From the NCBI GenBank assembly GCA_011525685.1, contig WYBW01000168.1, positions 25,859 through 89,858 of the forward strand: a stretch of 64,000 nucleotides of DNA. Direction: 5' to 3'. The first letter of the stretch is position 1; each line of letters opens with the position of its first letter. Shown piece by piece: positions 2,471 through 40,824 of the stretch. The translations under genes and the position numbers were made by a program. Source of the stretch: Verrucomicrobiia bacterium. Lineage in GTDB: Bacteria; Verrucomicrobiota; Verrucomicrobiia; Limisphaerales; JADLHS01. The notes under the pieces are model-generated. The model did not search any database, was not told the DNA's origin, and saw only the letters and a list, made by a program, of their open reading frames with translations.

Positions 2471-2484
2471 CCGCCAAGGATTTT

Positions 2485-15350: not shown

Positions 15351-16442
15351 TCAACCGTTGCCGGAGGAAGGTTGGACAGAACATGGAGCATGCAACACGT
15401 CACCCGCTCCCGGAACAGAGGTGCTGGCGGCCGGTTTCCCGCCCAGCAGCCCTTTCACCCTGTCCGCGATGATCGCTTCGCATCGCGCGATCTCCTCCCG
15501 GCGTTGTTTGAGAGAATCGTCCGCGATGGATTGCAGGTCGTCTATGTTGTAGAGGTAAACGTTCTCCAGGAAGATCACCTCCGGGTCAATGTCCCGGGGC
15601 ACGGCGATGTCGATCAGCAACAACGGCCGATCGCGGCGAAGTCTCATCAACCGCTCCAGCTTGGGGCGGTCAAGAATGTGGTGGGGAGCTGCGGTGCTGC
15701 TGATGACGATGTCCACGGCCTCGAACTCGGCGGCCCAGTCGTCGAAAGGGACGGCGCGTCCGCCGAGTTCCCGGGCGAGCGCTGCCGCGCGTTCGAAGGA
15801 GCGGTTGGCCACCAGGATGCCGCGGGCGCCGTGGGACAACAAGGCCCGCGCGGTTTTCTCGCTCGTGTCTCCGGCGCCGATGACCATGACTTCGTGGTCT
15901 TGCAGCGAGTTGAAGATCTTCTCCGCCAACTCGACGGCCACCGAAGCCACGGAGACGCTGCCGCGCTGGATGTTGGTTTCCGTGCGAATGTGCTTGGCCA
16001 CGTTGAAGGCCCGCTGAAACGCCTTGTTCAACCGCGGTCCCGTGTGGCCTCCGGAGAGGGCCACTTCGTAGGCTTTCTTGAGCTGTCCGAGGATTTCGGT
16101 TTCGCCCAGAACCATCGAGTCCAGTCCGCAGGCGACCTTGAACAGATGCACCAGGCTCTGCGGTTCGCTCAAGGTGTAGAGTTCGTCGCGGAGCGGCTCT
16201 TTGTATTCATGGTGTTGGACCAGGAATTCCCGCAGGCCGGCGAAGGCCTGTGCCGGCTCCAGGGGCGTGGCGGCATAAATCTCCACCCGGTTGCAGGTCG
16301 AGAGGATGACCGCCTCCTCCGCAATGTGGTGGCGGCGCAACCACTCCAGCGCGGACGGCACGCGCGCCTCGGCAAAGGCGAATCGCTCCCGCACAGCCAC
16401 GGGCGACGAACGATGACTCAGGCCGACTAGGACAATGGACAT
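15351..16442 (-). CDS. hemA: Glutamyl-tRNA reductase
   Basis: 363 aa; MSIVLVGLSHRSSPVAVRERFAF...AVILSTCNRVEIYAA..NAD-binding VMVIGAGDTSEKTARAL; immediately upstream (same strand) of hemC. Confidence 0.9.
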   Translation of the reverse strand: MSIVLVGLSHRSSPVAVRERFAFAEARVPSALEWLRRHHIAEEAVILSTCNRVEIYAATPLEPAQAFAGLREFLVQHHEYKEPLRDELYTLSEPQSLVHLFKVACGLDSMVLGETEILGQLKKAYEVALSGGHTGPRLNKAFQRAFNVAKHIRTETNIQRGSVSVASVAVELAEKIFNSLQDHEVMVIGAGDTSEKTARALLSHGARGILVANRSFERAAALARELGGRAVPFDDWAAEFEAVDIVISSTAAPHHILDRPKLERLMRLRRDRPLLLIDIAVPRDIDPEVIFLENVYLYNIDDLQSIADDSLKQRREEIARCEAIIADRVKGLLGGKPAASTSVPGAGDVLHAPCSVQPSSGNG

Positions 16443-16569
16443 GGCTGACAGAATTCGAACCGCAGGACTTGCTCTTTGTTACAACGCGCCGTGCGAGGAA
16501 CCGTTGACATTCCGAGCCACGCCAACCTGCCCGGCGGGCCGTCGTTTGGAATCTGGCGGGAGTCCGGTT

Positions 16570-25567: not shown

Positions 25568-28500
25568 ATGCGCGCTCTCACGAAGCTCCCTTGCTTCGCG
25601 GTCAACCTGGCCGCGGCTGCCGCGGTGTTGCTTGCGGCCGCTCCGGCCCGAGGCGACGGACAGGAGTTTTTCAATAAGAAGGTCCAGCCCATCCTGGTTC
25701 AGCATTGTTATTCCTGCCACAGCCATGACGCGGAGCGGATTCGGGGCGGCCTCGTGCTCGATTCGCGCGCCGGCCTGCTGAAAGGTGGGGACAGCGGCCC
25801 GGCCATCGTTCCGGGTGATCCGGATCGCAGCCTCCTCGTCCAAGCCGTGCGCTACACGGACGAGGAATTGCGAATGCCGCCCAAGAACCAGAAGCTGGCC
25901 GACGCCCAGATCGCAGACCTCGAAGCCTGGGTCAGAATGGGCGCTCCGGATCCAAGGCAGGAACGGTCGCCGGCGGTGGACTCCGAATCTGGACGGCGAC
26001 ACTGGGCTTTTCAACCTGTGCGGCCACCCACCGTTCCAACCGTGAAAAACAGCGCCTGGGTGAAGACGCCGATAGACGCCTTCATCCTGGCCAAGCTCGA
26101 GGCAAACAAACTGAAGCCCGCCCCCGTCGCCGACAGGCGAACTCTTCTGCGCCGCGCCACCTATGATCTCACCGGCTTGCCGCCCACGTTTGCCGAGGTG
26201 GAGGCGTTTGCGCGGGACAAGTCCCCGGACGCGTTCACAAAAGTCGTCGAACGGCTGCTGGCTTCACCCCAGTACGGCGAGCGCTGGGGACGATACTGGC
26301 TGGATGTCGCCCGTTACGCCGACACCAAAGGCTATGTCTATGGCGACCGCGAGGAGAAGCGGTTCATTCACTCGTATGCCTACCGCGACTGGGTCGTGCG
26401 GGCGTTCAACGACGACATGCCTTATGACCGGTTCCTGAAATTGCAGATCGCCGCCGACCAGATGGCCGACGCGGACCGGGACGCGCTCGCGGCGATGGGA
26501 TTCCTGACGTTGGGCCGGCGTTTTCTCGGCGTGGTCCATGACATCATTGATGACCGCATTGATGTGCTCACCCGCGGCACGCTGGGTTTGACGGTGAGTT
26601 GCGCGCGTTGTCATGACCACAAGTTTGATCCCATCCCGATCCAGGATTACTATTCGCTCTACGGCGTTTTCGCGGCCACTTCGGAACGGGCCGTGCCGTT
26701 AAGCGCGCGGGCGCAGAGCGCCGGTGAGTTCCTGAAGTTTGAGAAGGAACTCCAACGCCGTGAAGCGGCCTTCCGCGCGGCGTTCAACGAAAAGCGGGCG
26801 GAACAATCGCGCCGCATCCGAGCCCGGGTGTCGGATTATCTGGTCCAGGTGCTCGAGGTTCACAAGCTGCACACGGAGGAGTTTTACGCCTTCGTTTCCG
26901 CGGATGAAATCAATCCGGTGGTGGTGCGCCGGTGGCACGCTTATCTGCTCGAGACCGCCAAGCAGTTCCACCCCATCTGGTCGCCGTGGCATGAGTTCGC
27001 CCGGATTCCGGCGAATGAGTTCTCCGCGAGGTCGTCGTCAGTGATTGCTTCGTTTGGCGATGATTCGCAAAAGCTGAACCCTCTCGTGGCTGCGGCCTTT
27101 CGCGAACGTCCGCCTGCTTCCCTGCGCGATGTTGCGGACGTCTATGGAAAGCTGCTGAAGGCCGTGGACGAAAAGTGGAACGCGGCTGCGGACAAGCCAT
27201 CCGCCTTGAGCCAGGACGAGGAGGCGCTGCGGCAAGTTCTTTACGCCGAAGACTCGCCCTCGGTCGTTCCGGCGGGGGCGATCGTGGATTTGGAATGGTA
27301 CTTCGACGAGGCCACCCGCGTCCGGCTGGGCAAGCTCGCCAGTGAAATTGACCAATGGATTGTGCAGTCACCCGGTGCGCCGCCTTACGCCGTCATTTTG
27401 GAGGACCGGCCCGCGCCGGCCAACCCGCGCGTGTTCAAGCGCGGCAATCCGGCCAGCGTCGGCGAGGAAGTTCCGCGCCGATTCCTTGACCTTCTTGCCG
27501 GACCGGATCGTCGGCCGTTCTCCAAGGGGAGCGGGCGGCTGGAACTGGCCGAGGCAATTGCCAGCCCGGACAACCCGCTCACGGCTCGGGTGCTGGTGAA
27601 CCGAGTCTGGCAGCATCATTTCGGCGCCGGTCTGGTTCGAACACCGAGCGATTTCGGAACGCGCTGCGAACCGCCTTCGCATCCCGAGTTGCTCGATTGG
27701 CTCGCTCACAACTTTGTGGAACAGGGTTGGTCGGTGAAGCAACTGCACCGCCTCGTCATGCTCTCGGCAGTGTATCAGCAAGCCAGCGAGCCGGAACGCC
27801 CCGGCGAGCGACAGGCGGTGCGGACGGTGGCCTTGACGCCCCGCGACTCCAATCCAGACCAGGCGGCCGAGGCGGATCCGGAAAACCGACTGCTTTCGCG
27901 CTTCAACCGGCAGCGGCTGGATTTTGAGTCCTTGCGTGATTCGCTGCTGTTCGTCTCGGGCGAACTGGACCTGCAAATGGGCGGGCGCGCCGCTGAAATG
28001 TTCACACCGCCCTTCAGCACACGCCGCGCGATTTACGGTTACCTGGATCGCCAGTTTCTGCCGGGCACCCTGCGAGTGTTCGATTTTGCCAACCCGGACT
28101 TGCACACGCCCCAGCGGTCGGAAACCACCGTCCCCCAACAGGCGCTGTTTTTCTTGAACGGGCCTTTCGTCATTGGACGGGCCAAAGCTCTGGCCGCGCA
28201 ACCGTCCATCGCGGCGGCGGATTCACCCGACCGGAAGATCACGGAGCTTTACCGCCGCGTTTTCCAACGCGATCCAACCCGCTCGCAACTGCGCGTCGGC
28301 AGGCAATTCATTCAGGCGGCGCAAGCCCCGGTGGTCGAGGAGTCGCCGATTCAGAATCCGGGAGCTGCGGACTGGCACTACGGCTACGGAGAATTCGACA
28401 AGGCCGCGAGTGCGCTCAAGCATTTTGAGACGCTGCCTCACTTCACCGGCGAAGCTTGGCAGGGAAGCGACGCCTGGCCCGACAAGAAACTGGGCTGGTT

Positions 28501-28978
28501 GCAGTTGACCGCCGGCGGCGGCCACGCGGGGAATGATTTACAACACGCCGTCGTCCGCCGCTGGATTTCGCCGGTCGCCGGTTCGGTCTCGATTGAAGGG
28601 ACGATCCGGCATGAACACTCCCAGGGACACGGCATCCGGGCCTATCTTCATTCGAGCCGCCATGGGTTGCTCGGTCAATGGGTGTTGCACAACCGCGAGG
28701 CCGAGGCCGCCGTCGAGAGCGTGGCGGTCCAACCGGGCGACACGATTGACTTCGTGGTTTCGATCCACGAAAGCCTCAACAGCAACGATTTCCGCTGGGC
28801 GCCGGTGATCCGCATGACCGGGCCGGATGCCATGCGCGATGCCAACGGTTACGCGCGGGAGTGGAACGCGAAGCGGGATTTCAGCGGTCCGCCTTCGCCC
28901 CGCGAGGCTCCGCTTACCCCATGGGAGCAGTTCGCCCAGGCGCTGTTGCTCTCGAATGAGTTTTTGTTTGTGGATTGA
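25568..28978 (+). CDS. PSCyt1 / DUF1549 / DUF1553 (PSD1) domain protein
   Basis: 1136 aa; signal [29 protein letters not shown]. Planctomycete cytochrome-c-like [8 protein letters not shown], DUF1549 hallmark [25 protein letters not shown], long C-terminal DUF1553-like region. Followed by DUF1501 partner. Confidence 0.85.
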   Translation: [1136 protein letters not shown]

Positions 28979-29018
28979 GTCATGAAGCTAAAGACTGGTC
29001 GCCACCACCCTGTGAAAC

Positions 29019-30464
29019 ATGCCGTACCGTAAGCCCAACCCGCGCGAAGCGTTCGTGACACGGCGCGACTTCTTGTGCCGCTGCGGCATGGGCATGGGCG
29101 CGCTCAGTCTCGCGGCGTTGTTCGGCGAAACCAGCCTGCTGCTGCCCGCGGCGCAGGCGGCGGAGAGCCTCAATCCACTCGCCCCCAAGCCGCCGCATTT
29201 TCCGGGCAAGGCGAAGCGCGTCGTGCATTTCTTTCTCAACGGCGGTCCCTCGCACGTGGACTCGTTCGACCCCAAACCCGCGCTGGAGAAATACGCCGGC
29301 CGCCCGTTGCCCGGGGAATACATCAAGACCGAGCGCAAGACCGGCGCGGCCTTTCCCTCGCCGTTCAAGTTCAAGCCCCGCGGCCAGAGCGGCTTGGAGA
29401 TAAGCGATCTCTTTCCTCACCTCGGGGAAGTGGCCGATGAGTTGTGCCTGATCCGCTCGATGAAGGCCGAAGTGCCGAATCACGAGCCGTCGCTCATGCT
29501 GATGAACTGCGGCGATTCCGTCCAAAGCCGGCCCAGCCTCGGTTCCTGGACGACTTACGGATTGGGCACGGACAACTTGAATCTGCCGGGGTTCATTGTG
29601 ATGTGCCCGGGCGGGTATCCGATCAAGGACGCTGACAACTGGCAGAGCGGCTTCCTGCCCGGCGTGTATCAGGGCACGTACATTGACTCCCAGCACACCC
29701 GCATCGAGAAGCTGATCGAAAACATCCGCAACAGCCGCATCCCGCTCCAGGAGCAGCGTCGGCAACTGGATCTGGTGCAACAGCTCAACGCCGAGCATCA
29801 GGCCGCCCGCATACGCGACGCCCGGTTGGAGGCGCGCATTCAATCCCTCGAGATGGCTTATCGCATGCAGATGGAGGCCGCGGATGCCTTCGACATCAGC
29901 CGGGAACCGGAAGCGATTCGCAAACTATACGGGGAGGGTGTGCATGGCCGCCAGACCTTGATCGCGCGCCGTTTGCTGGAGCGCGGTGTGCGTTTCGTGC
30001 AACTCTGGCATGGCGCCAGCCAGCCGTGGGACAGTCATGAGAAAATCGAGGAGGCGCATCGCAAACTCGCGAAAGAGATTGATCAACCGGCCGCCGCGTT
30101 GATCCAGGACCTGAAACAGCGCGGGCTGCTCGATGACACCCTCATCATCTTTGGCGGCGAATTTGGCCGCACCCCCACAGTGGAACTGGGTGACAAAGGG
30201 GACGCCAAATATGGCCGCGACCATAACCCTTACGGGTTTACCGTGATGCTGGCCGGCGGCGGTGTGAAAGGCGGCACGGCTTACGGCGCGACGGATGAAT
30301 TCGGCTTCAAGGCCGTGGAGAACGTCGTTCACGTTCACGACCTGCATGCGACCATTCTGCACCTGCTCGGCTTCAACCACGAGAAGTTCACCTATCGCTA
30401 CGCGGGACGTGACTTTCGGCTGACGGATGTTCACGGGCACGTTGTGAAAGCCATTCTGGCCTGA
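29019..30464 (+). CDS. DUF1501 domain protein (Tat signal)
   Basis: MPYRKPNPREAFVTRRDFLCRCGMGMGALSLAALFG twin-arginine signal; FGGEFGRTPTVELGD...GRDHNPYGFTVMLAGGGVKGG DUF1501 motif. Confidence 0.9.
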   Translation: MPYRKPNPREAFVTRRDFLCRCGMGMGALSLAALFGETSLLLPAAQAAESLNPLAPKPPHFPGKAKRVVHFFLNGGPSHVDSFDPKPALEKYAGRPLPGEYIKTERKTGAAFPSPFKFKPRGQSGLEISDLFPHLGEVADELCLIRSMKAEVPNHEPSLMLMNCGDSVQSRPSLGSWTTYGLGTDNLNLPGFIVMCPGGYPIKDADNWQSGFLPGVYQGTYIDSQHTRIEKLIENIRNSRIPLQEQRRQLDLVQQLNAEHQAARIRDARLEARIQSLEMAYRMQMEAADAFDISREPEAIRKLYGEGVHGRQTLIARRLLERGVRFVQLWHGASQPWDSHEKIEEAHRKLAKEIDQPAAALIQDLKQRGLLDDTLIIFGGEFGRTPTVELGDKGDAKYGRDHNPYGFTVMLAGGGVKGGTAYGATDEFGFKAVENVVHVHDLHATILHLLGFNHEKFTYRYAGRDFRLTDVHGHVVKAILA

Positions 30465-30914
30465 ACCGCTCCGCAGCGTGGCGAAGCCACAACCTCCTTG
30501 GAGTGCGCGGACTTGTCCGCGCTTTCAGCAGGCGACCTGTCGCCGTCAACCGCCAGCGGTCGTCCAGGCTTCGCTACGAGCCGCCAAGTGCGACTCTGCT
30601 TGGCCGACGAGGCAGCCAAGCGTCGAGAGCTGCGACATGTCACCCCACTCCAACATCCGGGCGTGCGGTGAGGAATTGGACGAACCGCGCTGCCGAGGGG
30701 GCGCTCGCGCATCGTTAAGAAGCCAGAGCGGCGCGGCCCTTCCATCCTCCCGCAGACGGGCATTGCAAATTCGGTCAGGAATTGTATTGGCGGCATATTC
30801 CAGTTTTTGATAACCACGATGCAGTTCCGGCAGGCGCGTGCAGGGTGCGCTGAATTGGCTCTCAGGAAACTCGCGCACCGTTGGACGGGAAAACTCTAAA
30901 ACCAACCAAAGCTT

Positions 30915-33086
30915 ATGTGGACCACCATCATCATCGGACTCCTTCTGGTCGCGGGCCTTGTGGTCGTCGCGATCACGCTCCTGTGCATCCGCAAAATCCA
31001 GCCCGGTCGTGCCGGCGTCAAAACCGGCTGGGGCGGCCTCAAGGTGTCGTTCGACTGGATGGTGCGCATGCCGCTCGTCCAGACCTATCACATCATGGAC
31101 ATCTCCGTGAAGAAGCTGGAGATCACCCGCAAGGGCAAGGACGGCCTGGTCTGCAAGGACAACATTCGCGCCGACATCACCGTGGCCTTTTACATCCGGG
31201 TCGAGGCCACCGAGGAAAGCGTGCGCAAGGTCGCCCAGATGCTCACCCCCGAGCGCGTGTCGGACGTGAACCAGTTGCGCGAGCTGTTCGAGGCGAAGTT
31301 TTCCGAGGCACTCAAGACCGCCGGCAAACAGATGGAATTCCATGAACTGTTCACCGAACGCATCAAGTTCCGCGACCAGATTCAGAACACCATCGGCAAG
31401 GACCTTGACGGCTTCCTGCTCCAGGACGTGGCGATTGATTATCTCGAACAAACCCCGCTCGATCAGCACGACCCGAACAACGTTCTCGACGCCGAGGGCA
31501 TCAAGAAGATTACCGAAATCACCCAGCACGAGCGCGTGCTGGCCAACGAGTTTTCCCAGCGCGCCCAAGTGCAGGTCGAAAAGGAAAACGCCGACGCCGA
31601 CATCGCCAAGCGCGAGCAGAAGCGCCGCAACGAAGAAGACACCGCCAAACAGACCCGCGCCATCACCGAGGTGAAGGCCAACGAAGAGGCCGAGGCCCGC
31701 AAGGTGATCGAGGCCCGCCGCCAGGAAGTCGAAGGCAAACGCCTCGAAGCCGAAGAAGCGATTCAATTGCGCACGCAGGACATGAACCGCGCGGTGCAGG
31801 AACGTCAGTTCACGGTCACCAAGGAGAAGCAGCGCCTCGAACAGGAAGCCGTGCAGGAAGGCGAGGAAGCGCGGGTCCGCCGTGAGCGTTCCGTTTCGCT
31901 CGCCGAGATGGACAAGGAAGTCAAAGTGGCCGAGGCCGCCGTCGAAGTGGAACGCAAGAAAGCCGTGGTCGTGGCCGAGCAAAAGGCCGTTGTCCAGCAA
32001 CAGGAGGAAAAGACCAACATCGAGGCCCGCATGACCGCCGAGCGCGTGCGCGAAGTCACGCTCATCGAGGCGGAGATGATTGCCAAGAAGGGCCAGGTCG
32101 AGAAGGTCGTTGCCTCCGAAGCCCAGAAGGAAGCCGACCGCAATCTCGCCGAGGCCGAGAAGATCAAGACCATCACCGCCGCCGAGGCCGCCCGCGAAGC
32201 CGCGTTGCGCGAAGCCGAGCGCCTGCAAACCCTTGCCGATGCCGAAGCCAAGGCCAGCGAGAAGAAGCGGCACGCCATGGAACAAGAGGCCGAAGGTCTC
32301 GCCGCGCAGGAAGCCGCTGCCGGGCTGGCGGAGGCAAAAGTCATCGTGGCCAAGGCCAGCGCCAAGAAGGCGGATGCCGAGGCCATCAAGGCTGTGGGTC
32401 TGGCCGAAGCCGAGGTCGAGAAGGTCAAGGGCGACGCCCATGCCGAGGTCACCGAAACTCAGGCCGCCGCCGAAGCCGAGGGCACGAAGGACAAGGAACT
32501 CGCCATTGCCACCGGCATCCAGGCCAAGATGCTGGCCGAAGCCAAAGGCATCGAAGAGAAGGCCAAGGCCATGAAGCTCCTGCACGAGGCCGGCCAGCAA
32601 CACGAGGAATTCCGCCTGCGCCTCAACAAGGAACGCGACGTCGAACTCGCGGCCATCAATGTCAATCGCGACATTGCCCGCGCCCATTCGGAAGTCGTGG
32701 GTGAAGCCCTTAAGAACGCGAAGATTGACATCGTCGGTGGCGAGAACGACTTCTTCGAGAAGATCGTCCGCGCCGTGGGCAGTGGCAAATCCGTGGACCG
32801 CCTCGTCGCCAACAGCGAGACGTTGTCCGACATCAAGAGCACGTTTTTCAACGGCAACCCGGATTATTTCAAGTCGCAACTCGCCCAGTGGGTGAAGGAC
32901 TTTGGCATCAAGACCGAAGACTTGAAGAACCTGACGGTCTCTGCGTTGCTCGGCAAAATGATTGCGTCGTCCAAGGACAGTGGGTTGCAGTCGTTGCTGA
33001 AATCCGCGCACGCCATGGCCAAGGAAAGCGGCTTGTCTGACGTGATGGCGAGTGCGGTGTTGGCGGACAAGCCGGCCAAGGTGTGA
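30915..33086 (+). CDS. Flotillin / SPFH (band-7) family protein with about 450-aa Glu/Ala/Lys-rich coiled-coil tail
   Basis: N-terminal TM (MWTTIIIGLLLVAGLVVVAITLL), SPFH core (..YHIMDISVKKLEITRKGKDGLVCKDNIRADITVAFYIRVEATEESVRKVAQ..), then heptad-like charged repeats (EAEARKVIEARRQEVEGKRLEAEEA..). The 912-aa reverse ORF 30546..33284 is its low-complexity shadow. Confidence 0.85.
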   Translation: MWTTIIIGLLLVAGLVVVAITLLCIRKIQPGRAGVKTGWGGLKVSFDWMVRMPLVQTYHIMDISVKKLEITRKGKDGLVCKDNIRADITVAFYIRVEATEESVRKVAQMLTPERVSDVNQLRELFEAKFSEALKTAGKQMEFHELFTERIKFRDQIQNTIGKDLDGFLLQDVAIDYLEQTPLDQHDPNNVLDAEGIKKITEITQHERVLANEFSQRAQVQVEKENADADIAKREQKRRNEEDTAKQTRAITEVKANEEAEARKVIEARRQEVEGKRLEAEEAIQLRTQDMNRAVQERQFTVTKEKQRLEQEAVQEGEEARVRRERSVSLAEMDKEVKVAEAAVEVERKKAVVVAEQKAVVQQQEEKTNIEARMTAERVREVTLIEAEMIAKKGQVEKVVASEAQKEADRNLAEAEKIKTITAAEAAREAALREAERLQTLADAEAKASEKKRHAMEQEAEGLAAQEAAAGLAEAKVIVAKASAKKADAEAIKAVGLAEAEVEKVKGDAHAEVTETQAAAEAEGTKDKELAIATGIQAKMLAEAKGIEEKAKAMKLLHEAGQQHEEFRLRLNKERDVELAAINVNRDIARAHSEVVGEALKNAKIDIVGGENDFFEKIVRAVGSGKSVDRLVANSETLSDIKSTFFNGNPDYFKSQLAQWVKDFGIKTEDLKNLTVSALLGKMIASSKDSGLQSLLKSAHAMAKESGLSDVMASAVLADKPAKV

Positions 33087-33102
33087 TGAGCAGGATGGGA
33101 AA

Positions 33103-33386
33103 TAGCGTGGACGTTTCGCGAAGCAGTCTGTCGCCCCTCCGGGGCTTGTGGTGCCGCCGACTAACCCACGGCTCAGGCCGTGGGCTACTGGCTGCCGCTG
33201 CTCCGCAGCTATCCGCGTGGGGAGAAACCAGCGCAAACCCGAAACGGATCGAAACATTCGAGCGTGTGACCTGAGGGGCGACACAGGCGCGGAGCGCCGT
33301 CAGAGAGTAGCCCACGGCGCAAGCCGTGGGTTTGAATCGAAAACGAATCAAGCCCCGTAGGGGTGAAAGAAAAGAGCGGAAACAAT
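33103..33386. repeat. REPIN-like palindromic element (left of RAYT): G-rich hairpin, REP(-) ... REP(+), G-rich hairpin
   Basis: REP hairpins at about 33164..33188 (AACCCACGGCTCAGGCCGTGGGCTAC) and about 33307..33332 (GTAGCCCACGGCGCAAGCCGTGGGTT) in inverted orientation. Terminal GCCCCTCCGGGGC / CCCCGTAGGGG hairpins. Both ends are reverse-complement related to the ends of the right-hand element. Confidence 0.7.
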
Positions 33387-33387
33387 C

Positions 33388-33840
33388 ATGGCCCACACCT
33401 ACACGAGTCTGTTGAGCCATATCATTTTCAGCACGAAGGACCGCGTGCCAATGTTGGATGCGGAGCTGAAGACTCGGCTGTTTCCCTATATGGGCGGCAT
33501 TATCCGTGAACTCGGCGGTGCCGGGCTGTCGATCAACGGGCCGACCGATCATGTCCACTTGCTCGCCTCGTTGCCTGCCACGATTGCGCTTTCTGATTTT
33601 GTGGGGAAGGTGAAGGCCAATTCATCTGGCTGGGTTCACAAAACATTTCCCAACCAACGCGAATTCAAGTGGCAGGTCGGTTACGGCGCATTCAGCGTCA
33701 GTGTTTCCCAGCGCGACAAGGTGCTGACTTACATTGCCGATCAGGAGGAACACCATCGCAAGGTATCGTTTAAGGAAGAGTTCATGGGCTTTCTCAAGAA
33801 ACACGGGATCGCCTACGACGAGCGTTACGTTTTTGATTGA
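33388..33840 (+). CDS. REP-associated tyrosine transposase (RAYT; IS200/IS605-like Y1 HUH transposase)
   Basis: 150 aa; HUH motif GPTDHVHLLASLP, C-terminal catalytic-Tyr helix VLTYIADQEEHH, RAYT-typical size. Flanked on both sides by GTAG-initiated REP palindromes. Confidence 0.85.
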   Translation: MAHTYTSLLSHIIFSTKDRVPMLDAELKTRLFPYMGGIIRELGGAGLSINGPTDHVHLLASLPATIALSDFVGKVKANSSGWVHKTFPNQREFKWQVGYGAFSVSVSQRDKVLTYIADQEEHHRKVSFKEEFMGFLKKHGIAYDERYVFD

Positions 33841-33844
33841 TGAA

Positions 33845-34150
33845 TGGTTGTTTGAACATTTGCGGAAATGGTCTTTCGCCCCTACGGGGCTTGTTCCGTC
33901 GCGGCACGAAACCCACGGCTGACGCCGTGGGCTACTCTCTAACGGCGCTCCGCGCCTATGAAACTGCTTCCGCCACTCCCATTGTATCGAGAAGGAGTTT
34001 GCCAGGAACTTGTTCGTTCTGTGCCCCACAACGGCGGGGACTTGTCCGTGTAGCTGCGAAGCAGCGCCAGAGGGTAGCCCACGGCTTACGCCGAGGGTAT
34101 GACGCGACCACATGCCACAAGCCCCGGAGGGGCGAAAGAACACCCCGGCG
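33845..34150. repeat. REPIN-like palindromic element (right of RAYT)
   Basis: REP hairpins at about 33909..33934 (AACCCACGGCTGACGCCGTGGGCTAC) and about 34076..34100 (GTAGCCCACGGCTTACGCCGAGGGTA, degenerate); terminal GCCCCTACGGGGC and GCCCCGGAGGGGC hairpins. Confidence 0.7.
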
Positions 34151-34187
34151 CGCGTGTCCACATTTTCATTTTTCGTTTGCCTGATCC

Positions 34188-37100
34188 ATGCCCGACGCCC
34201 CCGAACCAAAACCCGCTCCGCCGCCCGAAGGCGCACCGACTGCCGCGCCCGAAACCACTGCGCCCTCGACCGCGCAGGCGCTGGGCAGCGCAACGTATGA
34301 AATCATCCGCCAGCGGCTGAACACGCAGGGCGCGGCGTTGCGGGAACGCATGGCCAAGCTCGACGCCCGCCGCGCGGAGGTGTTCGGGACGATTGAGTAC
34401 AAGCTGCTCCAGGCCGACCGCATCGTCACGTCACACAACTGCGTCCCGCGCGACATGGTTCAGCTTGGGCACGGACGATTTCTGTTCGGTTTCAACGTCC
34501 AGTTTGGGCTGAAGAAGGAAATGGAACTGGCGGATGTGTTCGCGGTTTATCGGCGCGACGAGGAAGCGGGGACGTTCAAGGAGGACACGCTCGACGTTCT
34601 CAACGACAAACAATTCCTCATAGACTTCAAGCGCCTCTACAACGTCTATGAGAAAACCGCGTTCCGGAAATTCGCGGTCATTGACGGCAAGCTTTACATG
34701 AAGTTCGCCACCGGCGCGGGGCTGAATGATTTCGCCGTGTTCAAGTGGGCGTTCAACGAAGGCAACCTGAAGTTCGTGGATGGTCGAGCCGAAGCCGAGT
34801 ACCGCCGCATCGCCTATCCGCCCGCGCATCAGTTTCGCTGGCAGACACCGGATCGCGAATCCTATCGCTACGGCGATCATCCGCATGTGTCCATCGAGGA
34901 CCGCGTGTTCGTGGAGTGCGTCGGCGGCGATCTTACGATCAAGGTCGAGGACAACACCAAGACCGGCGAGGGCGTTTATTCCGAGCCGGTGGATGACAAA
35001 TACCAAAAGGTGGACGATGCCGAGATCGCCTACGGCCTGGTCGGGCATTTGATCCTGCTGAAAATCCGGCCTTACAAGGAGCAGGCCGCGCGCTATTTCA
35101 TTTTCAACGAGAAGCAGCAAACGGCGGTGCGGGTGGATTCCCTCGGGTACTCGTGCGTCATGTTGCCTGAGGAGCACGGGTTGATTTTCCCGGACGGCTA
35201 CTATCTCGCGACCGGCGAACTCAAGCAGTTTGACTGCGACGCCACAAACATGGTCATCGAACGCGTCGTTCATGCGCCGAATGGCGAGGATGTGCTCTAC
35301 GTGTTTTACAACCGGCTGACGGGTGATTACGCGCTGCTGCCGTATCGCCTCATCGCGCAAAAGGTCGAGGAGCGCATCAGTTGCAACGGTTTCTCGCTGT
35401 TCCCGAACGGTCATCTCCTCTTGTTCCGCGCCGAGGCCGAGCCGCAGAAGCATCACATGATTCAACTGCGGCAGACGCCGTTCCATCAGCCCGGTTCCGA
35501 GCCCGCCGGCCAGAAGGATGCGTTCCTGTATCAAGTCGGGAACAAGGAAGTCGTGCGCTGTCTCGCCGAGTGCAACGAGGTGATGACGCTCGTGCGGAAG
35601 GAAAATCCCTACGCGGAAATCTACACCGACCTCGTCAAACGTTGCGGCGCGATTCTTGATTCGTATCCGTGGCTGTCGAGTGCGGATGGTTTCGGCGTGG
35701 ACGCGGCCTTGCGCGCCGTGCGCGAGGCGGCGGACAAGGCGGTGGATGAATACGACAAGGTGCGCCGGCTGCAACGCGAGGCGGTCGAGCGCGTGAAGGA
35801 CATTCGGAAGCGTTGCACCGAGCAATTCCAGAACATCCGTCGCGCGAGCTTCCGCGTGCTGAATGATTTCGTGGTGAACCTCGCCACCTTGCGCAAGTTG
35901 CGCGGCGAACTCATCACGCTCAAGGAAGTCCGCTACGTGGACGTGGCGCAGGTTGAGGAGTTGGAGAAGCAGGTTGCGACGCAGACCGACGAACTTTCCA
36001 ACTCGTGTGTGAAGTTTCTGCTCAAGCCCGAGGCGCTGGAACCGTATCGCCGGCAGGCCACCGATCATCTTGCGGCGGTGGATCGAGTGACCAAGGTCGC
36101 CGAGGGAAAAGAAATCGAGAAGGCCGTGACCGTGGCCGGCGGCGAACTCGAAATGCTCATCGAGATCGTCAACAGCCTGAAGATCGAGGACGCCACTGAG
36201 ACGACGCGCATCATTGACGGCATCACGGCGGTTTATTCCACGCTGAATCAGGTCAAGGCCGCGCTCAAGAAGCGCCTGCAAAGCCTCGTCGCCAGCGAAG
36301 GCGCGGCGCAGTTTGCCGCGCAGATGAAGCTGTTGAGCCAGGCGGCTTCGAGTTATCTCGACCTCTGCGATTCGCCGGCCAAGTGTGAAGAGTATTTGAA
36401 TCGCCTCTCCGTTCAACTGGAGGAACTGGAGGGCACATTCGCCGATTTCGAGGAATACACCGTTCAACTCGCCGAGCGGCGCACCGAACTTTACGAGGCG
36501 TTCGAGCAGCGCAAGGTTGCGCTCGTCGAGCAACGGAATCGCAAAGCCTCAGCGCTGATGACCGCTGCCGAGCGCATTCTCAAGGTGATTCAGAATCGTC
36601 TCGCCGGGTTCAAGTCCATCGAGGACATCAACAGTTACATGGCGTCGGACCTGATGATCGCCAAGGTTCGCGAGACGATTGAGCAACTGCTCGCGCTTGG
36701 CGATTCGGTGAAGGCCGACGACTTGCAGGGCCGGCTCAAGAGCGTGCAGCAGGACGCGGTGCGGCAGTTGAAGGATCGGCAGGAATTGTTTGTCGGCGGC
36801 GAGAACGTCATCAAGCTCGGCAAGCATCAGTTCAACATCAACACGCAGCCGCTCGACCTGACAGTCGTGAATCGCGACGGGGTGCAGCACATCCACCTGA
36901 CGAGCACAAAGTATTTCGAGGCGATCACGGATGAAGCCTTCCTCGCCACGCGGGATGTGTGGGATCAGGAAGTGGTTTCGGAGAATCGCGAGGTTTATCG
37001 CGCCGAATATCTCGCGTGGCAGATGTTGAAGGCGATCGAAAATAGGAGCGCGGGCTTTAGCCCGCTTCAACGTGGCAATGGCGGAGCCCTTGGAAATCCT

Positions 37101-39983
37101 GATGAGTCCCAGCCAGTGCGGGAGGTGAAGCGGGCTGAAGGCCGCGCTCCGAGTCTGGCGGCAGCCCTTGCGTTTTCAGACGACCAACGCCTCGGCTTCG
37201 TGCAGGAGTTCATGGGCGCGCGGTACCAGGAAGGCTACGCCAAGGGCCTTCATGACCAGGACGCCGCGAAGATTTTCCACGCGCTGCTCACCACGCATCA
37301 CGCGCTGCAACTCGCGCGCTTCAGTCCGATGGCGCGGGCCGGCGCCGTGGTTTACTGGAATCGCTTTTGTCCGGCGGAAACGAAGACGCTCTGGACGGCC
37401 AAGCTCAACGGCTTTGCCGAGCGCAACAAGCTTTTCCCCGGCGATCCAACGCAACAAGACTACATCGCCGCGCTGCAAGCGTTGGTGCGCGCGTTCGTCG
37501 AGGAAGCGAAGCTCTACCCGCCCGAGATCGCCAATGAAGCGGGCGAGTACCTGTTCAACGAACTCATCACCAGCGAAACGGTCTCCGTCAGCCAGGAAGC
37601 CGATCAATTGGCGAACGCGTTCAGCCGTCATCTCGCGAGCAAAGGCAGTGAGAAGACCTTTGAACAACGCCGCCAGGCACTGGTCGAGCATCCCGGCAGC
37701 GAACTCGACTTGGTGCGCGATTGGGTGAGGGGATTTCTCCTTACACAGGTGGATCCGGTCGCGCTGCGACCGGATGTCGAGTCGCAGCGCGACTCGACCC
37801 ACCAGTTCCGCTATCTCGATGAAGTCGCCGCCATTTTGTTCTGCGGCGCGGCGCTCAAGCGCTCCGTCGTCAAAGCCGCCACCTCGCGGGTGATCGAATG
37901 CATGAAGGGCAGTCACGCGCTGATTCAGGGCAGCAAGTATCACTTTGATTACCTGAACTTTCAGGAACGGCTGCAACGCTTCGAGCGCGAGGTTGTGCCG
38001 CGTTTCGAGAAGTTCCACGCGCTCAAGCAGGAGTTGATTGAGCGCGAGCGCGCCAAGCTGCGGCTGGAGGAATTCAAGCCCAAGGTGCTGACGTCCTTCG
38101 TGCGCAACCAGCTCATTGACCAGGTTTATCTTCCGCTCATCGGCGACAATCTCGCCAAGCAGATTGGCGCGGCGGGCGCGGCCAAGCGCACGGACCTGAT
38201 GGGATTGCTGCTCGTGATTTCGCCGCCCGGTTACGGCAAGACCACCCTGATGGAATACATCGCCAGCCGGCTGGGACTCGTCTTCATCAAAATCAACGGC
38301 CCGGCCCTCGGGCACAATGTCGTGTCGCTCGATCCCGAGGAAGCGCCAAACGCCGCCGCACGCGAGGAAATCATCAAGCTGAACCTCGCGCTGGAGATGG
38401 GCGACAACGCGATGATCTGCGTGGACGACATCCAGCATTGCAACCCGGAGTTCCTGCAGAAGTTCATCTCGCTCTGCGACGCCCAACGGAAGATCGAGGG
38501 CGTCTGGCGCGGGAAGCCGCGCACTTATGATCTGCGCGGTCGCAAGGTCGTGGTGGTGATGGCGGGCAATCCTTACACCGAAAGCGGACAGAAATTCAAA
38601 ATCCCGGACATGCTCGCCAACCGCGCCGACACCTACAACCTCGGCGACATCATCGGTGGCAGCGCGGATTATTTCAAGGCGAGCTATCTCGAAAACGCCG
38701 TCACTTCCAACGCTGTGCTCGCACCGCTGGCGAACAAGAGCCAGAAGGACATCTGCTCGTTCATCCGCATGGCGGAATCCGGCGAGCGCGAGGCCGAGGG
38801 GTTCGAGGGGAGTTACTCCTCGCAGGAGGTGGAGGAAATCCTCTCCGTGATGAAAAAACTCGTGATGATTCGCGAAGTCGTGCTGCGCGTGAATCAGGAA
38901 TACATCTACTCCGCCGCGCAGGCGGACGAGTTCCGCGTCGAACCGCCGTTCCGCTTGCAAGGATCGTATCGCAACATGAACCGCTTGGCGGAAAAGGTCG
39001 TCGCCATCATGAACGACGACGAAGTGCGCGGACTCATCGTGGACCATTATCGCGGTGAGTCGCAGACATTGACGACCGGCGCGGAGGCGAACCTGCTCAA
39101 ATTCAAGGAACTCATCGGCGAATTGACGGCGGAGGAGAAAGCGCGCTGGGAGGACATCAAGCAGACGTTCAAGCGCAACAACGCCGCACGTGGTGCCGGC
39201 GGCGAGAACGACCCCGCCGGGCGCATCGTGGCGCAGTTGAGCGGGTTTCAGTCGGGCTTGGAAGGAATCCAGAAGGTCATCTCAGACCAGTTGGCCAAAC
39301 CACCTCCGCCACCTCCACAGGTCAACGTGGACATGACTCCGGTGGGCCGCAGTCTGGAAGCCCTGCAAACCGCTCTGGAGAAACAAGCGGCAAAGGCCCC
39401 GCCTGCGCCGCAAGTCGTGGTGGACCTGACCCCGGTAGGCAAAGGGCTGGAAGCATTGCAGGCGGCGCTGGAGAAGCAGTCCACGAGGTCGCAACCTGCC
39501 GCGCTGCCCGTGACGATTGATCTCACGCCGCTCGCCGCGAACCTCGAGGCGTTGCGCAACACCGTTGACCAGCGCCTCGCACAACCGGCCAGGAAAGAGG
39601 ACAAGGGCAATGGCGATTTCAACGTGCTCGCCGCCAAGCTGGGCGAAGGACTGAACGCACTGCGGGAGGACTTGAGCCGGGCGATTTCGGTGGTTCACAC
39701 CGGCACGATGGCCGACGCGATGAAGCGGATGGAGCACGAGATGGAGATGGTCCACAGCACGCTGGCAACATTGAAAGACATGGCCGCGCGGCAGCGCGAT
39801 CATTTGCGCGCCTCGCAGGAACTGCTGGAAACCCGCGCGAAGCAGGGCGCGGTGGAGATTGACGTGACGCAGGAGATGTTGACCAACGAAGCGGCGTTCC
39901 TCGAACACTTCCACAAAGTCATTGCCGAGGCGCAAAAGCAGCGCGAGTCCAAGGAAGGCGAACCACCGTCAAAGAATCAATGA
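34188..39983 (+). CDS. Giant (1931 aa) coiled-coil protein with a single MoxR/AAA_5-type ATPase module and C-terminal tandem repeats; function unknown
   Basis: Continuous ORF with coherent domain content. Walker A LLLVISPPGYGKTTLMEY (nt about 38229). Walker B/MoxR box NAMICVDDIQHCNPEFLQKFISLCD. Sensor region VVVVMAGNPYTESGQKFKIPDMLANRADTYNL matching the MoxR pattern hhhATxNP.E..G...LPEA.LDRF. Long predicted coiled coils between residues about 520-900. Three about 36-aa repeats at the C-terminus (..VDMTPVGRSLEALQTALEKQ.. / ..VDLTPVGKGLEALQAALEKQ.. / ..IDLTPLAANLEALRNTVDQR..). Reverse ORFs 34431..36533 and 37176..39047 are shadows. Confidence 0.85.
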   Translation: MPDAPEPKPAPPPEGAPTAAPETTAPSTAQALGSATYEIIRQRLNTQGAALRERMAKLDARRAEVFGTIEYKLLQADRIVTSHNCVPRDMVQLGHGRFLFGFNVQFGLKKEMELADVFAVYRRDEEAGTFKEDTLDVLNDKQFLIDFKRLYNVYEKTAFRKFAVIDGKLYMKFATGAGLNDFAVFKWAFNEGNLKFVDGRAEAEYRRIAYPPAHQFRWQTPDRESYRYGDHPHVSIEDRVFVECVGGDLTIKVEDNTKTGEGVYSEPVDDKYQKVDDAEIAYGLVGHLILLKIRPYKEQAARYFIFNEKQQTAVRVDSLGYSCVMLPEEHGLIFPDGYYLATGELKQFDCDATNMVIERVVHAPNGEDVLYVFYNRLTGDYALLPYRLIAQKVEERISCNGFSLFPNGHLLLFRAEAEPQKHHMIQLRQTPFHQPGSEPAGQKDAFLYQVGNKEVVRCLAECNEVMTLVRKENPYAEIYTDLVKRCGAILDSYPWLSSADGFGVDAALRAVREAADKAVDEYDKVRRLQREAVERVKDIRKRCTEQFQNIRRASFRVLNDFVVNLATLRKLRGELITLKEVRYVDVAQVEELEKQVATQTDELSNSCVKFLLKPEALEPYRRQATDHLAAVDRVTKVAEGKEIEKAVTVAGGELEMLIEIVNSLKIEDATETTRIIDGITAVYSTLNQVKAALKKRLQSLVASEGAAQFAAQMKLLSQAASSYLDLCDSPAKCEEYLNRLSVQLEELEGTFADFEEYTVQLAERRTELYEAFEQRKVALVEQRNRKASALMTAAERILKVIQNRLAGFKSIEDINSYMASDLMIAKVRETIEQLLALGDSVKADDLQGRLKSVQQDAVRQLKDRQELFVGGENVIKLGKHQFNINTQPLDLTVVNRDGVQHIHLTSTKYFEAITDEAFLATRDVWDQEVVSENREVYRAEYLAWQMLKAIENRSAGFSPLQRGNGGALGNPDESQPVREVKRAEGRAPSLAAALAFSDDQRLGFVQEFMGARYQEGYAKGLHDQDAAKIFHALLTTHHALQLARFSPMARAGAVVYWNRFCPAETKTLWTAKLNGFAERNKLFPGDPTQQDYIAALQALVRAFVEEAKLYPPEIANEAGEYLFNELITSETVSVSQEADQLANAFSRHLASKGSEKTFEQRRQALVEHPGSELDLVRDWVRGFLLTQVDPVALRPDVESQRDSTHQFRYLDEVAAILFCGAALKRSVVKAATSRVIECMKGSHALIQGSKYHFDYLNFQERLQRFEREVVPRFEKFHALKQELIERERAKLRLEEFKPKVLTSFVRNQLIDQVYLPLIGDNLAKQIGAAGAAKRTDLMGLLLVISPPGYGKTTLMEYIASRLGLVFIKINGPALGHNVVSLDPEEAPNAAAREEIIKLNLALEMGDNAMICVDDIQHCNPEFLQKFISLCDAQRKIEGVWRGKPRTYDLRGRKVVVVMAGNPYTESGQKFKIPDMLANRADTYNLGDIIGGSADYFKASYLENAVTSNAVLAPLANKSQKDICSFIRMAESGEREAEGFEGSYSSQEVEEILSVMKKLVMIREVVLRVNQEYIYSAAQADEFRVEPPFRLQGSYRNMNRLAEKVVAIMNDDEVRGLIVDHYRGESQTLTTGAEANLLKFKELIGELTAEEKARWEDIKQTFKRNNAARGAGGENDPAGRIVAQLSGFQSGLEGIQKVISDQLAKPPPPPPQVNVDMTPVGRSLEALQTALEKQAAKAPPAPQVVVDLTPVGKGLEALQAALEKQSTRSQPAALPVTIDLTPLAANLEALRNTVDQRLAQPARKEDKGNGDFNVLAAKLGEGLNALREDLSRAISVVHTGTMADAMKRMEHEMEMVHSTLATLKDMAARQRDHLRASQELLETRAKQGAVEIDVTQEMLTNEAAFLEHFHKVIAEAQKQRESKEGEPPSKNQ

Positions 39984-39993
39984 GGAGGTAATC

Positions 39994-40824
39994 ATGAAAC
40001 AATTCATCAGCAAGGCAAAGGATCTGAGTCAACGCGCGGCGGAGTGGAAGGCCGCCGTGGAGCGGTTGCCACCCAAGGTGGCGGAAGTGCGCGAAACCAT
40101 TGCCGCGACCGCCGGGCAATTGCAGCAATTGAAGACCGAGGTTCAGTCCAGCGTGACCGACTTGAAAGCTGACAGCGAACAGCGCATCAGCCAGGCGCTC
40201 CAGGAAATCAACAGCAGTCGGGAAGTGTTCCTGGAGGCCGGCTTCGACCTGGACGGGGTGGACCTGGAAATCAGCCCCGTCCAACGGCTGCTGGTGCATT
40301 TGGACAAGCTGGAGGAGGTGTCACCAGCAGTGATCCGGTCGCTGATTGCCGCGAACAAACCGCGCCGGACGACGCACGCCTTGCTGACCGCGTTGCTACA
40401 GGCTCAGGAAACGGCAGCGACGGTGGACCTGGCCGGGCTGGATTGTGTTGAACTGGTCGTTGGCATCGGACCCATTCCTTCGGTGCGCCTTTGCTGGCGG
40501 GCGGCAGCGGCTTCCGCGGAAACCGCCAAGCCGACACCATCTCACTCTCCCCAAGTGGCCTCTGCCGCCCCCGCAGCGCCGACGCCCTCGGCTTTCAGCC
40601 AGAGCACGTTTTTCGAGCGTCAAGCGGTCGTGCCATCGCCTTCGGCGATTGCCACGCCCCAGTCCGAAGCCAGCGCGCCCGTTGTTCCACCTGCAGTTCC
40701 GCACCTGGCAAAATCCGCGGAAACATCGGCAGACATCGAGACGACACGCACGACTTCCCCAGCCGCCGGAACACCAGATCCATTGGCGCGATTCAAGAAG
40801 ATGCCCGATCTCTCCAAGCATTGA
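39994..40824 (+). CDS. Hypothetical 277-aa protein translationally coupled to the giant ATPase (structured N-terminal half, Ala/Pro/Ser-rich disordered C-terminal half)
   Basis: ATG 39994 lies 10 nt after the giant gene stop and is preceded by GAGGAGGTAA, one of the few strong SD sequences in the window. No recognisable domain. Confidence 0.7.
   Translation: MKQFISKAKDLSQRAAEWKAAVERLPPKVAEVRETIAATAGQLQQLKTEVQSSVTDLKADSEQRISQALQEINSSREVFLEAGFDLDGVDLEISPVQRLLVHLDKLEEVSPAVIRSLIAANKPRRTTHALLTALLQAQETAATVDLAGLDCVELVVGIGPIPSVRLCWRAAAASAETAKPTPSHSPQVASAAPAAPTPSAFSQSTFFERQAVVPSPSAIATPQSEASAPVVPPAVPHLAKSAETSADIETTRTTSPAAGTPDPLARFKKMPDLSKH

Follow-up and report, generated by a model that had tools for sequence, protein, structure and literature searches.

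A 64,000-nucleotide stretch of the genome of a Verrucomicrobiia bacterium (contig WYBW01000168.1; hereafter the window) encodes a giant protein of 1931 amino acids (aa) with a single AAA+ ATPase module, and this raises two questions: to which family does the giant belong, and what does it do? A sequence-only reading of the same DNA had concluded that no described system matches and that the giant could not be assigned to any family. We find that it is a typical representative of an ATPase family that already has a name and is characterized by the domains DUF3686 and DUF7902, and that its operon type has already been described in silico (PMC11237479). The operon combines a flotillin SPFH scaffold with a giant cytoplasmic ATPase made of a propeller, a stalk, a middle domain and one MoxR/dynein-type AAA+ module. 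With moderate confidence, we propose that it serves to remodel membrane flotillin scaffolds at the expense of ATP, as part of a membrane-stress response.

The giant gene occupies positions 34188-39983 of the plus strand, where it is the longest frame, and is a real gene, as had been assumed. Its TGA stop codon (39981-39983) is followed by GGAGGTAATC and then by the ATG, at 39994, of a partner gene (39994-40824, plus strand). The gap is thus 10 nt long and carries a strong Shine-Dalgarno sequence (AGGAGG) ahead of the partner, as first noted, while the partner itself counts 276 residues and not 277, the latter being its number of codons including the stop. A doubt raised at the outset, that the giant might be a fusion artefact or a pseudogene, can be dismissed, since the identical protein was found on independent contigs and the same full-length architecture recurs in thousands of proteins.

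Family membership was established with Pfam. The N-terminal 500 residues or so, previously thought to lack any recognizable motif, contain a full-length match to PF12458/DUF3686 (aa 51-493; E 3.6e-166; 553.6 bits for a cut-off of 25; profile positions 2-447 of 448). This is followed by PF25472/DUF7902 at aa 615-698 (36030-36281; E 3e-24; 85.4 bits for a cut-off of 26) and by a marginal AAA_5 match at aa 1342-1467. The same set of Pfam domains was present in all of the best 120 homologues, and at least 3,800 homologues share the architecture. Searched against 1.84 billion representative proteins, the DUF3686 region by itself returned 693 clusters (at 50% identity) with E <= 0.001, 246 of them with E <= 1e-30; the full-length members recovered in this way measured 1600-1930 aa, and the domain was N-terminal in all of them. 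In plasmid and chromid records, tblastn aligned the giant collinearly over aa ~32-1700, at 35-48% identity, with relatives from Hymenobacter, Nonomuraea, Streptomyces, Deinococcus, Proteus, Pseudomonas fluorescens (pQBR103), Halomonas, Photobacterium and Vibrio. Acidobacteriota, Deltaproteobacteria/Myxococcota and more Gammaproteobacteria came up in a profile search. When the giant was compared by sequence with the Protein Data Bank (PDB), only weak matches around the P-loop were obtained, and a literature search returned no relevant paper on DUF3686, PF12458 or DUF7902.

NCBI names these homologues "DNA repair ATPase", and one could ask whether the giant acts on DNA. Apart from the name, such a role could draw on Foldseek similarities to RuvB and MCM, which are of a generic AAA+ kind, and on the LexA-family regulator that lies beside the Hymenobacter operon. 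The label, however, merely echoes the Pfam title, and neither Pfam nor NCBIfam detected a DNA-binding, nuclease or helicase domain in the giant. We consider the database name misleading and not to be trusted, and give a function in DNA repair next to no credence.

A more informative precedent comes from the genome comparison of Ravi, Anantharaman, Aravind, Gennaro et al. (mSystems 2024; PMC11237479), who described a "beta-propeller + coiled-coil + AAA-ATPase" protein encoded after a band-7/flotillin gene. In their operons, CesT/Tir and PspA are joined with the flotillin, the ATPase and a YqiJ/YuaF membrane protein in a membrane-stress context, and abbreviated operons lacking PspA are more widespread. 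The authors proposed a chaperone- or ESCRT-like role in membrane dynamics, in which membrane-linked complexes would be assembled. The Hymenobacter locus has the gene order of the Dokdonia row of that study (LexA-like regulator, CesT/Tir, PspA, YqiJ, flotillin, ATPase), and the ATPase encoded there shares 48% identity with the giant. Taking Hymenobacter as a stand-in for the Dokdonia sequence, we infer from this layout and this identity that the giant belongs to the ATPase family of Ravi et al.

We analyzed 11 loci from other lineages, comprising 7 named organisms (from the Bacteroidota, Actinomycetota, Deinococcota and Gammaproteobacteria), 3 large unlabelled contigs and one Stutzerimonas stutzeri assembly. 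All 11 carried, on one strand, a YqiJ-like gene followed by a flotillin gene and the giant. A PspA/IM30 gene adjoined the operon in 4 of the 11 loci and a CesT/DUF2170 chaperone gene in 3.

The 723-aa protein encoded upstream of the giant in the window (30915 to 33086, plus strand) is the counterpart of these flotillins. It consists of an N-terminal transmembrane segment, an SPFH domain, a long Ala/Glu-rich coiled coil and a conserved C-terminal block, HEEFRLRL...IDIVGGENDFFEK...GKSVDRL. Its identity as a YqiK-like SPFH membrane protein follows from two comparisons with Escherichia coli YqiK. An alignment of 17 orthologues (A2) matched YqiK in hhalign (probability 99.9%, E 4e-34) over 418 columns, the transmembrane segment and the SPFH domain among them, and tblastn of YqiK against the window found the same gene (32% identity over 426 aa, E 2e-38). 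Furthermore, the protein is 33-39% identical to the flotillins encoded upstream of the DUF3686 ATPases in the 11 loci of other lineages. Against Pfam (Band_7, Flot) it gave no match even at E 10. This is a blind spot of the models and not counter-evidence, since a homologue with 39% identity (locus L087; L-numbers designate individual loci) has a precomputed Band_7 match. Similarly, no PDB entry was found by phmmer, and a profile search of the PDB yielded just a coiled-coil match to QmcA. Because Pfam and phmmer stayed blank despite the hhalign result, this flotillin subfamily would escape automatic annotation.

The C-terminal block, HEE[FY]R[LM].L ... I.IVGG[ED]..FF ... GK.V[DE], is common to the ATPase-linked flotillins of all lineages examined (32600-32850 in the window, flotillin aa ~560-640; L084-L094). 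E. coli YqiK has neither this block nor an adjoining ATPase. From this sequence pattern, we regard the block as a site on which the ATPase might dock.

A scan of GTDB species genomes gave 80 Verrucomicrobial loci. The sequence-only reading had suggested that conservation of the flotillin-giant-partner trio be checked, and it holds: in nearly every Verrucomicrobial locus with enough flanking sequence, the flotillin gene lies upstream and the partner gene downstream of the giant. Complete ORFs (open reading frames) were present for the flotillin in 56 and for the partner in 49 loci. Relative to the copies in the window, the flotillin is 75-96% identical (48-50% in the deepest lineage), the giant 55-87% and the partner 28-59%. 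The gap between flotillin and giant is mostly 8-160 nt. In 15 species the partner start and the giant stop overlap by 4 nt; in a further 15 they are at most 25 nt apart. In the deepest lineage (L056, L057, L060 and L080), the partner homologue is found downstream of the giant on the opposite strand (about 15470-16490, minus). There it was recognized by the partner hidden Markov model (HMM) with E values of 1e-41 to 1e-46, the match ending before the C-terminal peptide described below. The adjacency of giant and partner therefore outlasts the loss of translational coupling. An all-versus-all clustering of the ORFs of these loci, which was noisy owing to shadow ORFs, revealed no other conserved neighbour.

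Eight of the loci (L004, L005, L013, L016, L019, L020, L040 and L044) come from metagenome-assembled genomes labelled as uncultured Bifidobacteriaceae, Bifidobacterium, Klebsiella or Hyphomicrobiales. Their operons are 66-87% identical to the Verrucomicrobial gene and show Verrucomicrobial synteny, and the taxon labels of these records look wrong.

The Verrucomicrobial loci differ from the operons of Ravi et al., which have YqiJ/YuaF and, in their full form, also CesT/Tir-PspA. In the 82 Verrucomicrobial loci, no YqiJ/YuaF, PspA or CesT/Tir gene was found within +-10 kb: HMMs for YqiJ-like proteins and PspA found nothing in these loci or in the 64-kb window, and for DUF2170, too, both were blank. 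Overall, the genomes show that the giant pairs obligately with a dedicated flotillin subfamily. Gene content further indicates that the Verrucomicrobial operon is a variant, in which the YqiJ-type gene is missing nearby and a predicted soluble, fast-evolving partner of 260-300 aa is encoded downstream instead, translationally coupled to the giant in most of the lineages.

An alignment of 24 partner sequences (A3) revealed N-terminal helices (aa 1-80) and a compact domain (aa 82-169) ending in GPIPSVRLCWR. The remainder is a variable, disordered Pro/Ala/Ser linker with an SSFFE-like motif, as the earlier description of an Ala/Pro/Ser tail had it, and it ends in an invariant C-terminal peptide, DPLARFKKMPDLSK (40777-40821). 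The motif L.RF[KR][KRQ]MP was found in 45 loci and occurs a single time in the window. The partner was found to have no transmembrane segment, signal peptide or vWA domain, the absence of the latter having been noted before, and no Pfam domain was matched by the partner or by its relatives (221 detectable, 120 of them covered).

Several candidate relationships of the partner were rejected. BLASTP against the giant gave E 0.033 at best, hhalign against PspA gave 3%, and no relation to YqiJ-like proteins was seen by BLAST or HMM. We regard its weak Pfam matches (Apolipoprotein, Filament, PspA_IM30 and others; E 0.003-0.3) as generic coiled-coil noise. In the loci of other phyla, the partner HMM found nothing, be it a gene of its own or a fusion to a giant. 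The partner thus appears, by profile search, to be specific to the Verrucomicrobia. A conserved peptide on a disordered tether is a typical docking motif, and the C-terminal peptide of the partner looks like one, for which the propeller or the flotillin would be the predicted receptor.

A partner that evolves so much faster than the giant (28-59% against 55-87% identity) would also fit an NTP-dependent conflict or anti-phage system of the MoxR type, the alternative that the sequence-only reading had offered. The MoxR-like core and the location of some family members on plasmids or near toxin-antitoxin genes point in the same direction. However, PADLOC gave no convincing match (the best were an LmuB coiled coil at E 2e-5 and mad8 at 6e-4, with none for the flotillin), and Pfam detected no vWA or effector domain. 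Moreover, the synteny of the trio is stable in nearly all Verrucomicrobial loci, the flotillin is very strongly conserved, and in other phyla the partners of the ATPase are the membrane-homeostasis genes YqiJ, flotillin and PspA. We therefore judge a role in defence very improbable. The gene context favours the other proposal made at the outset, that of a membrane-associated mechanochemical or scaffolding machine.

We next consider the anatomy of the giant, for which two AlphaFold2 models were built, covering aa 1-860 and aa 850-1700, each from alignments of 42 sequences with 37-83% identity. The predicted local distance difference test score (pLDDT) was 85.3 for the first model and 84.6 for the second, which had a predicted template-modelling score of 0.72. 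In the first model, a disordered Pro/Ala head (aa 1-27) and a helix (aa 28-66) precede a beta-propeller of ~7 four-stranded blades (aa 72-429; 34401 to 35474, plus strand), which lies within DUF3686. The top PDB matches of this model in Foldseek were beta-propellers, namely Sec12, paraoxonase PON1, prolyl oligopeptidase, Elp1, WDR91 and the clathrin terminal domain. The N-terminal domain of the giant is thus predicted by these models to fold as a beta-propeller. Dozens of residues in this region are invariant between lineages.

The propeller is followed by an all-helical stalk or bundle (aa 446-859; 35523 to 36764, plus strand) with helices of up to 58 aa, which contains DUF7902. Together with a second, mostly helical region at aa ~990-1290, it accounts for the two helical regions predicted previously. 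Between the stalk and the AAA+ module lies a conserved middle domain (aa 860-1291; 36765 to 38060, plus strand), for which Foldseek found no match among solved structures. According to the model, it is composed of a small beta unit (aa ~874-912), a helical domain (~990-1222) and a long helix (1255-1291), and it includes a lineage-specific disordered insert at aa 956-984. It harbors the invariant motif EGY..G.HD.DA (37245-37265; G1020, H1022 and D1025), and R1050 and H1243 are invariant as well.

These long helical regions, together with the propeller, raise the possibility that the giant is a static scaffold or tether that links flotillin platforms to another cell structure, with ATP binding controlling its assembly. 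Foldseek indeed returned matches to the propeller-plus-helix coat proteins clathrin, COPI and IFT-A. These were weak, however, with TM scores of just 0.07-0.14 and resting on the propeller alone, and a protocoatomer-like reading was dropped. What bears further on a nucleotide-gated tether is the AAA+ module itself.

This module (38085 to 39167, plus strand; aa ~1300-1660) is single, as had been claimed, and of the MoxR/dynein/midasin (AAA_5) type. All motifs that had been quoted for it were located: Walker A, SPPGYGKTT (aa 1345-1353; 38223-38246); Walker B, ICVDDIQH (aa 1410-1417; 38415-38438), with D1413 and D1414; and MAGNPYTE...MLANRAD (aa 1458-1481), with sensor 1 (N1461) and a candidate Arg finger (R1479). 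A beta-hairpin (aa 1435-1448) is modelled ahead of sensor 1, and R1595, within QGSYRNMN, is a candidate sensor 2. The model shows a canonical alpha/beta core and then a helical lid and a C-terminal bundle reaching to aa ~1700. Of the second model, only the 200-290 aa of the AAA+ module aligned with solved structures in Foldseek, the closest to its core being CbbQ, NorQ, dynein and midasin. Walker A, D1413, D1414, N1461, R1479 and R1595 do not vary among 45 diverse members, whose identity to the giant is 30-45%, and the motifs invariant in the family (SPPGYGKT, DD.QH, GNPYT, PDML.NR and QGSYR) are all present in the giant.

The Walker B motif is peculiar in that it reads Asp-Asp where Asp-Glu is usual, Asp-Asp being uncommon in the MoxR/AAA_5 clade. 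The Walker B motif of DnaA, a slow and switch-like AAA+ protein, reads DDIQ. An invariant Asp-Asp of this kind would suit a tether gated by nucleotide binding. On the other hand, invariance extends to sensor 1, the candidate Arg finger and the candidate sensor 2, which argues that hydrolysis matters. We thus regard the tether as improbable.

In its AAA_5-type core, the giant resembles the MoxR proteins CbbQ, NorQ and RavA, and its closest solved structures include MoxR proteins. It departs from them in other respects: MoxR proteins are stand-alone proteins of ~300 aa with a vWA/MIDAS (metal ion-dependent adhesion site) partner and Asp-Glu in Walker B, whereas the giant has 1931 aa, a partner without vWA and Asp-Asp, and its module comes at the end of a 1300-aa scaffold of propeller, stalk and middle domain. 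Dynein and midasin have six concatenated AAA modules per chain and the giant has one, so any ring would need several copies of it.

The protein ends in a variable tail (aa 1661-1931; 39168 to 39980, plus strand), made of repeats and then a conserved helical end. Three repeats of 36 aa had been reported here. There are indeed three copies, V.VD[LM]TP[VL]...LEAL, separated by Pro-rich linkers, but they start at aa 1712, 1743 and 1775 and hence have a period of 31-32 aa. No tandem repeat was found underneath them at the DNA level. Verrucomicrobial orthologues have 0-3 repeats; in other phyla the tails differ in length and one comparable repeat unit was seen.

SPFH scaffolds repeatedly pair with AAA+ machines, as in HflK/C with FtsH and prohibitin with the m-AAA protease. 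Flotillin and giant resemble these systems in the coupling, here a genetic one, of an SPFH scaffold to an AAA+ machine. This precedent, the conserved flotillin/YqiJ/PspA gene context and the domain architecture are what lead us to favour the remodelling of flotillin scaffolds. We propose the following mechanism. The giant would oligomerize through its AAA+ module, probably as a ring, by analogy with its structural relatives, and the flotillin assembly would recruit it to the inner face of the cytoplasmic membrane. The strictly conserved propeller, carried on the helical stalk, would dock on a conserved surface of a partner, for which the C-terminal block of the ATPase-linked flotillins is the best candidate. 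Nucleotide-driven motion, passed through the stalk to the propeller, could then assemble, disassemble or reshape the flotillin scaffold. Where the operon includes PspA, a PspA/ESCRT-III-like scaffold may also be acted on. The Verrucomicrobial partner, finally, might be an adaptor or regulator that replaces the YqiJ/YuaF-type (DUF1449, NfeD-like) membrane protein.

Alternatively, the ATPase could act on client proteins in or close to the membrane that collect within flotillin microdomains, as an unfoldase or extractor resembling FtsH in HflK/C but devoid of a protease, and the partner would then be a substrate adaptor. FtsH differs from the giant, which has no protease domain and no transmembrane segment and belongs to another AAA+ clade. 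In addition, no protease or degradation partner is conserved nearby, and modules of the MoxR/dynein type are known more as remodellers or maturation factors of particular complexes than as machines that thread substrates. Action on clients hence seems unlikely to us, if less so than the tether.

A broader version of scaffold remodelling draws on the Vps4/ESCRT-III system. The likeness lies in the family being encoded together with PspA in one operon in several phyla, and Ravi et al. (PMC11237479) viewed these operons as analogues of ESCRT-like complexes, while a 2025 review considers a Vps4-like ATPase apparently absent from bacteria. Vps4 is not homologous to the giant, which lacks an MIT domain and belongs to another AAA+ clade, and the Verrucomicrobial operon has no nearby PspA. 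We tentatively suggest that DUF3686 ATPases might be the missing bacterial scaffold remodeller, a counterpart of Vps4/p97 working on flotillin cages and PspA polymers. In that case, the propeller would sit on the flotillin block, and the Verrucomicrobial adaptor would substitute, via its C-terminal peptide, for the YqiJ/NfeD subunit.

Several points weigh against the remodelling of flotillin scaffolds. We found no experiment on any member of the DUF3686 family in the literature, and the function is therefore deduced from gene context and domain architecture alone; a paper on SPFH proteins of Pseudomonas aeruginosa makes no mention of the ATPase. Because of the Asp-Asp in Walker B, hydrolysis may be slow or switch-like, unlike that of a processive motor. 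The middle domain could hold an uncharacterized binding or catalytic activity that lies outside the proposed model. The link to PspA is indirect here, given that the 64-kb window contains none. Lastly, in this genome a 1.1-kb insert of transposase and repeats at 33087-34187 separates the flotillin and giant genes, which makes their co-transcription uncertain.

Owing to this insert, the upstream gene, though correctly recognized at first as a flotillin on the same strand, is not the immediate neighbour of the giant. The insert contains an IS200-like Y1 transposase gene (33388-33840) between two direct copies of a ~265-nt unit (33108-33371 and 33853-34140), in each of which GC-rich hairpins make up a long, imperfect palindrome. 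All 3 copies of the pattern CCCACGGC-N4-GCCGTGGG in the window lie in the insert, against 0 expected by chance. The transposase gene and its flanking units resemble a REP-associated transposase (RAYT) and REPIN-like doublets. In L010, L013, L038, L040 and L049, a Y1 gene lies at the same site between flotillin and giant (65-93% aa identity). A frame named ORF115 (33837-34184) was rejected as a gene, as it falls inside the right-hand palindromic repeat unit, and a 912-aa antisense ORF over the flotillin gene (30546-33284, minus strand) is a shadow ORF.

Regarding the surroundings, the 2383-aa gene with CotH and LTD domains that had been reported as the convergent neighbour of the giant is present. 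Neither this gene nor the PSCyt/DUF1501 genes are kept as neighbours across loci. Gene sets typical of Planctomycetes/Verrucomicrobia, with DUF1800 + DUF1501 and PSCyt1/PSCyt2/PSD1 + DUF1501, lie at 53-4185 and 25568-30464. Housekeeping genes in the window encode porphobilinogen deaminase, glutamyl-tRNA reductase and a PAS histidine kinase. The context of the locus is chromosomal, with no island. Promoter and terminator scans gave signals no better than chance.

For the dismantling or reshaping of flotillin platforms and PspA polymers in bacteria, the giant, encoded immediately after a dedicated flotillin subfamily in at least 6 phyla, is an obvious candidate. The ATPase family and the flotillin operon type were already known; what is new is a partner found only in Verrucomicrobia, in the place of the YqiJ-type protein. 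To this we add the anatomy of the protein, with confident models, and a structure-based assignment of its motor to the MoxR/dynein/midasin group. The tethered invariant peptide of the partner provides a concrete handle on the complex, and the ATPase family, although already flagged in the literature, is an attractive target for experiments.

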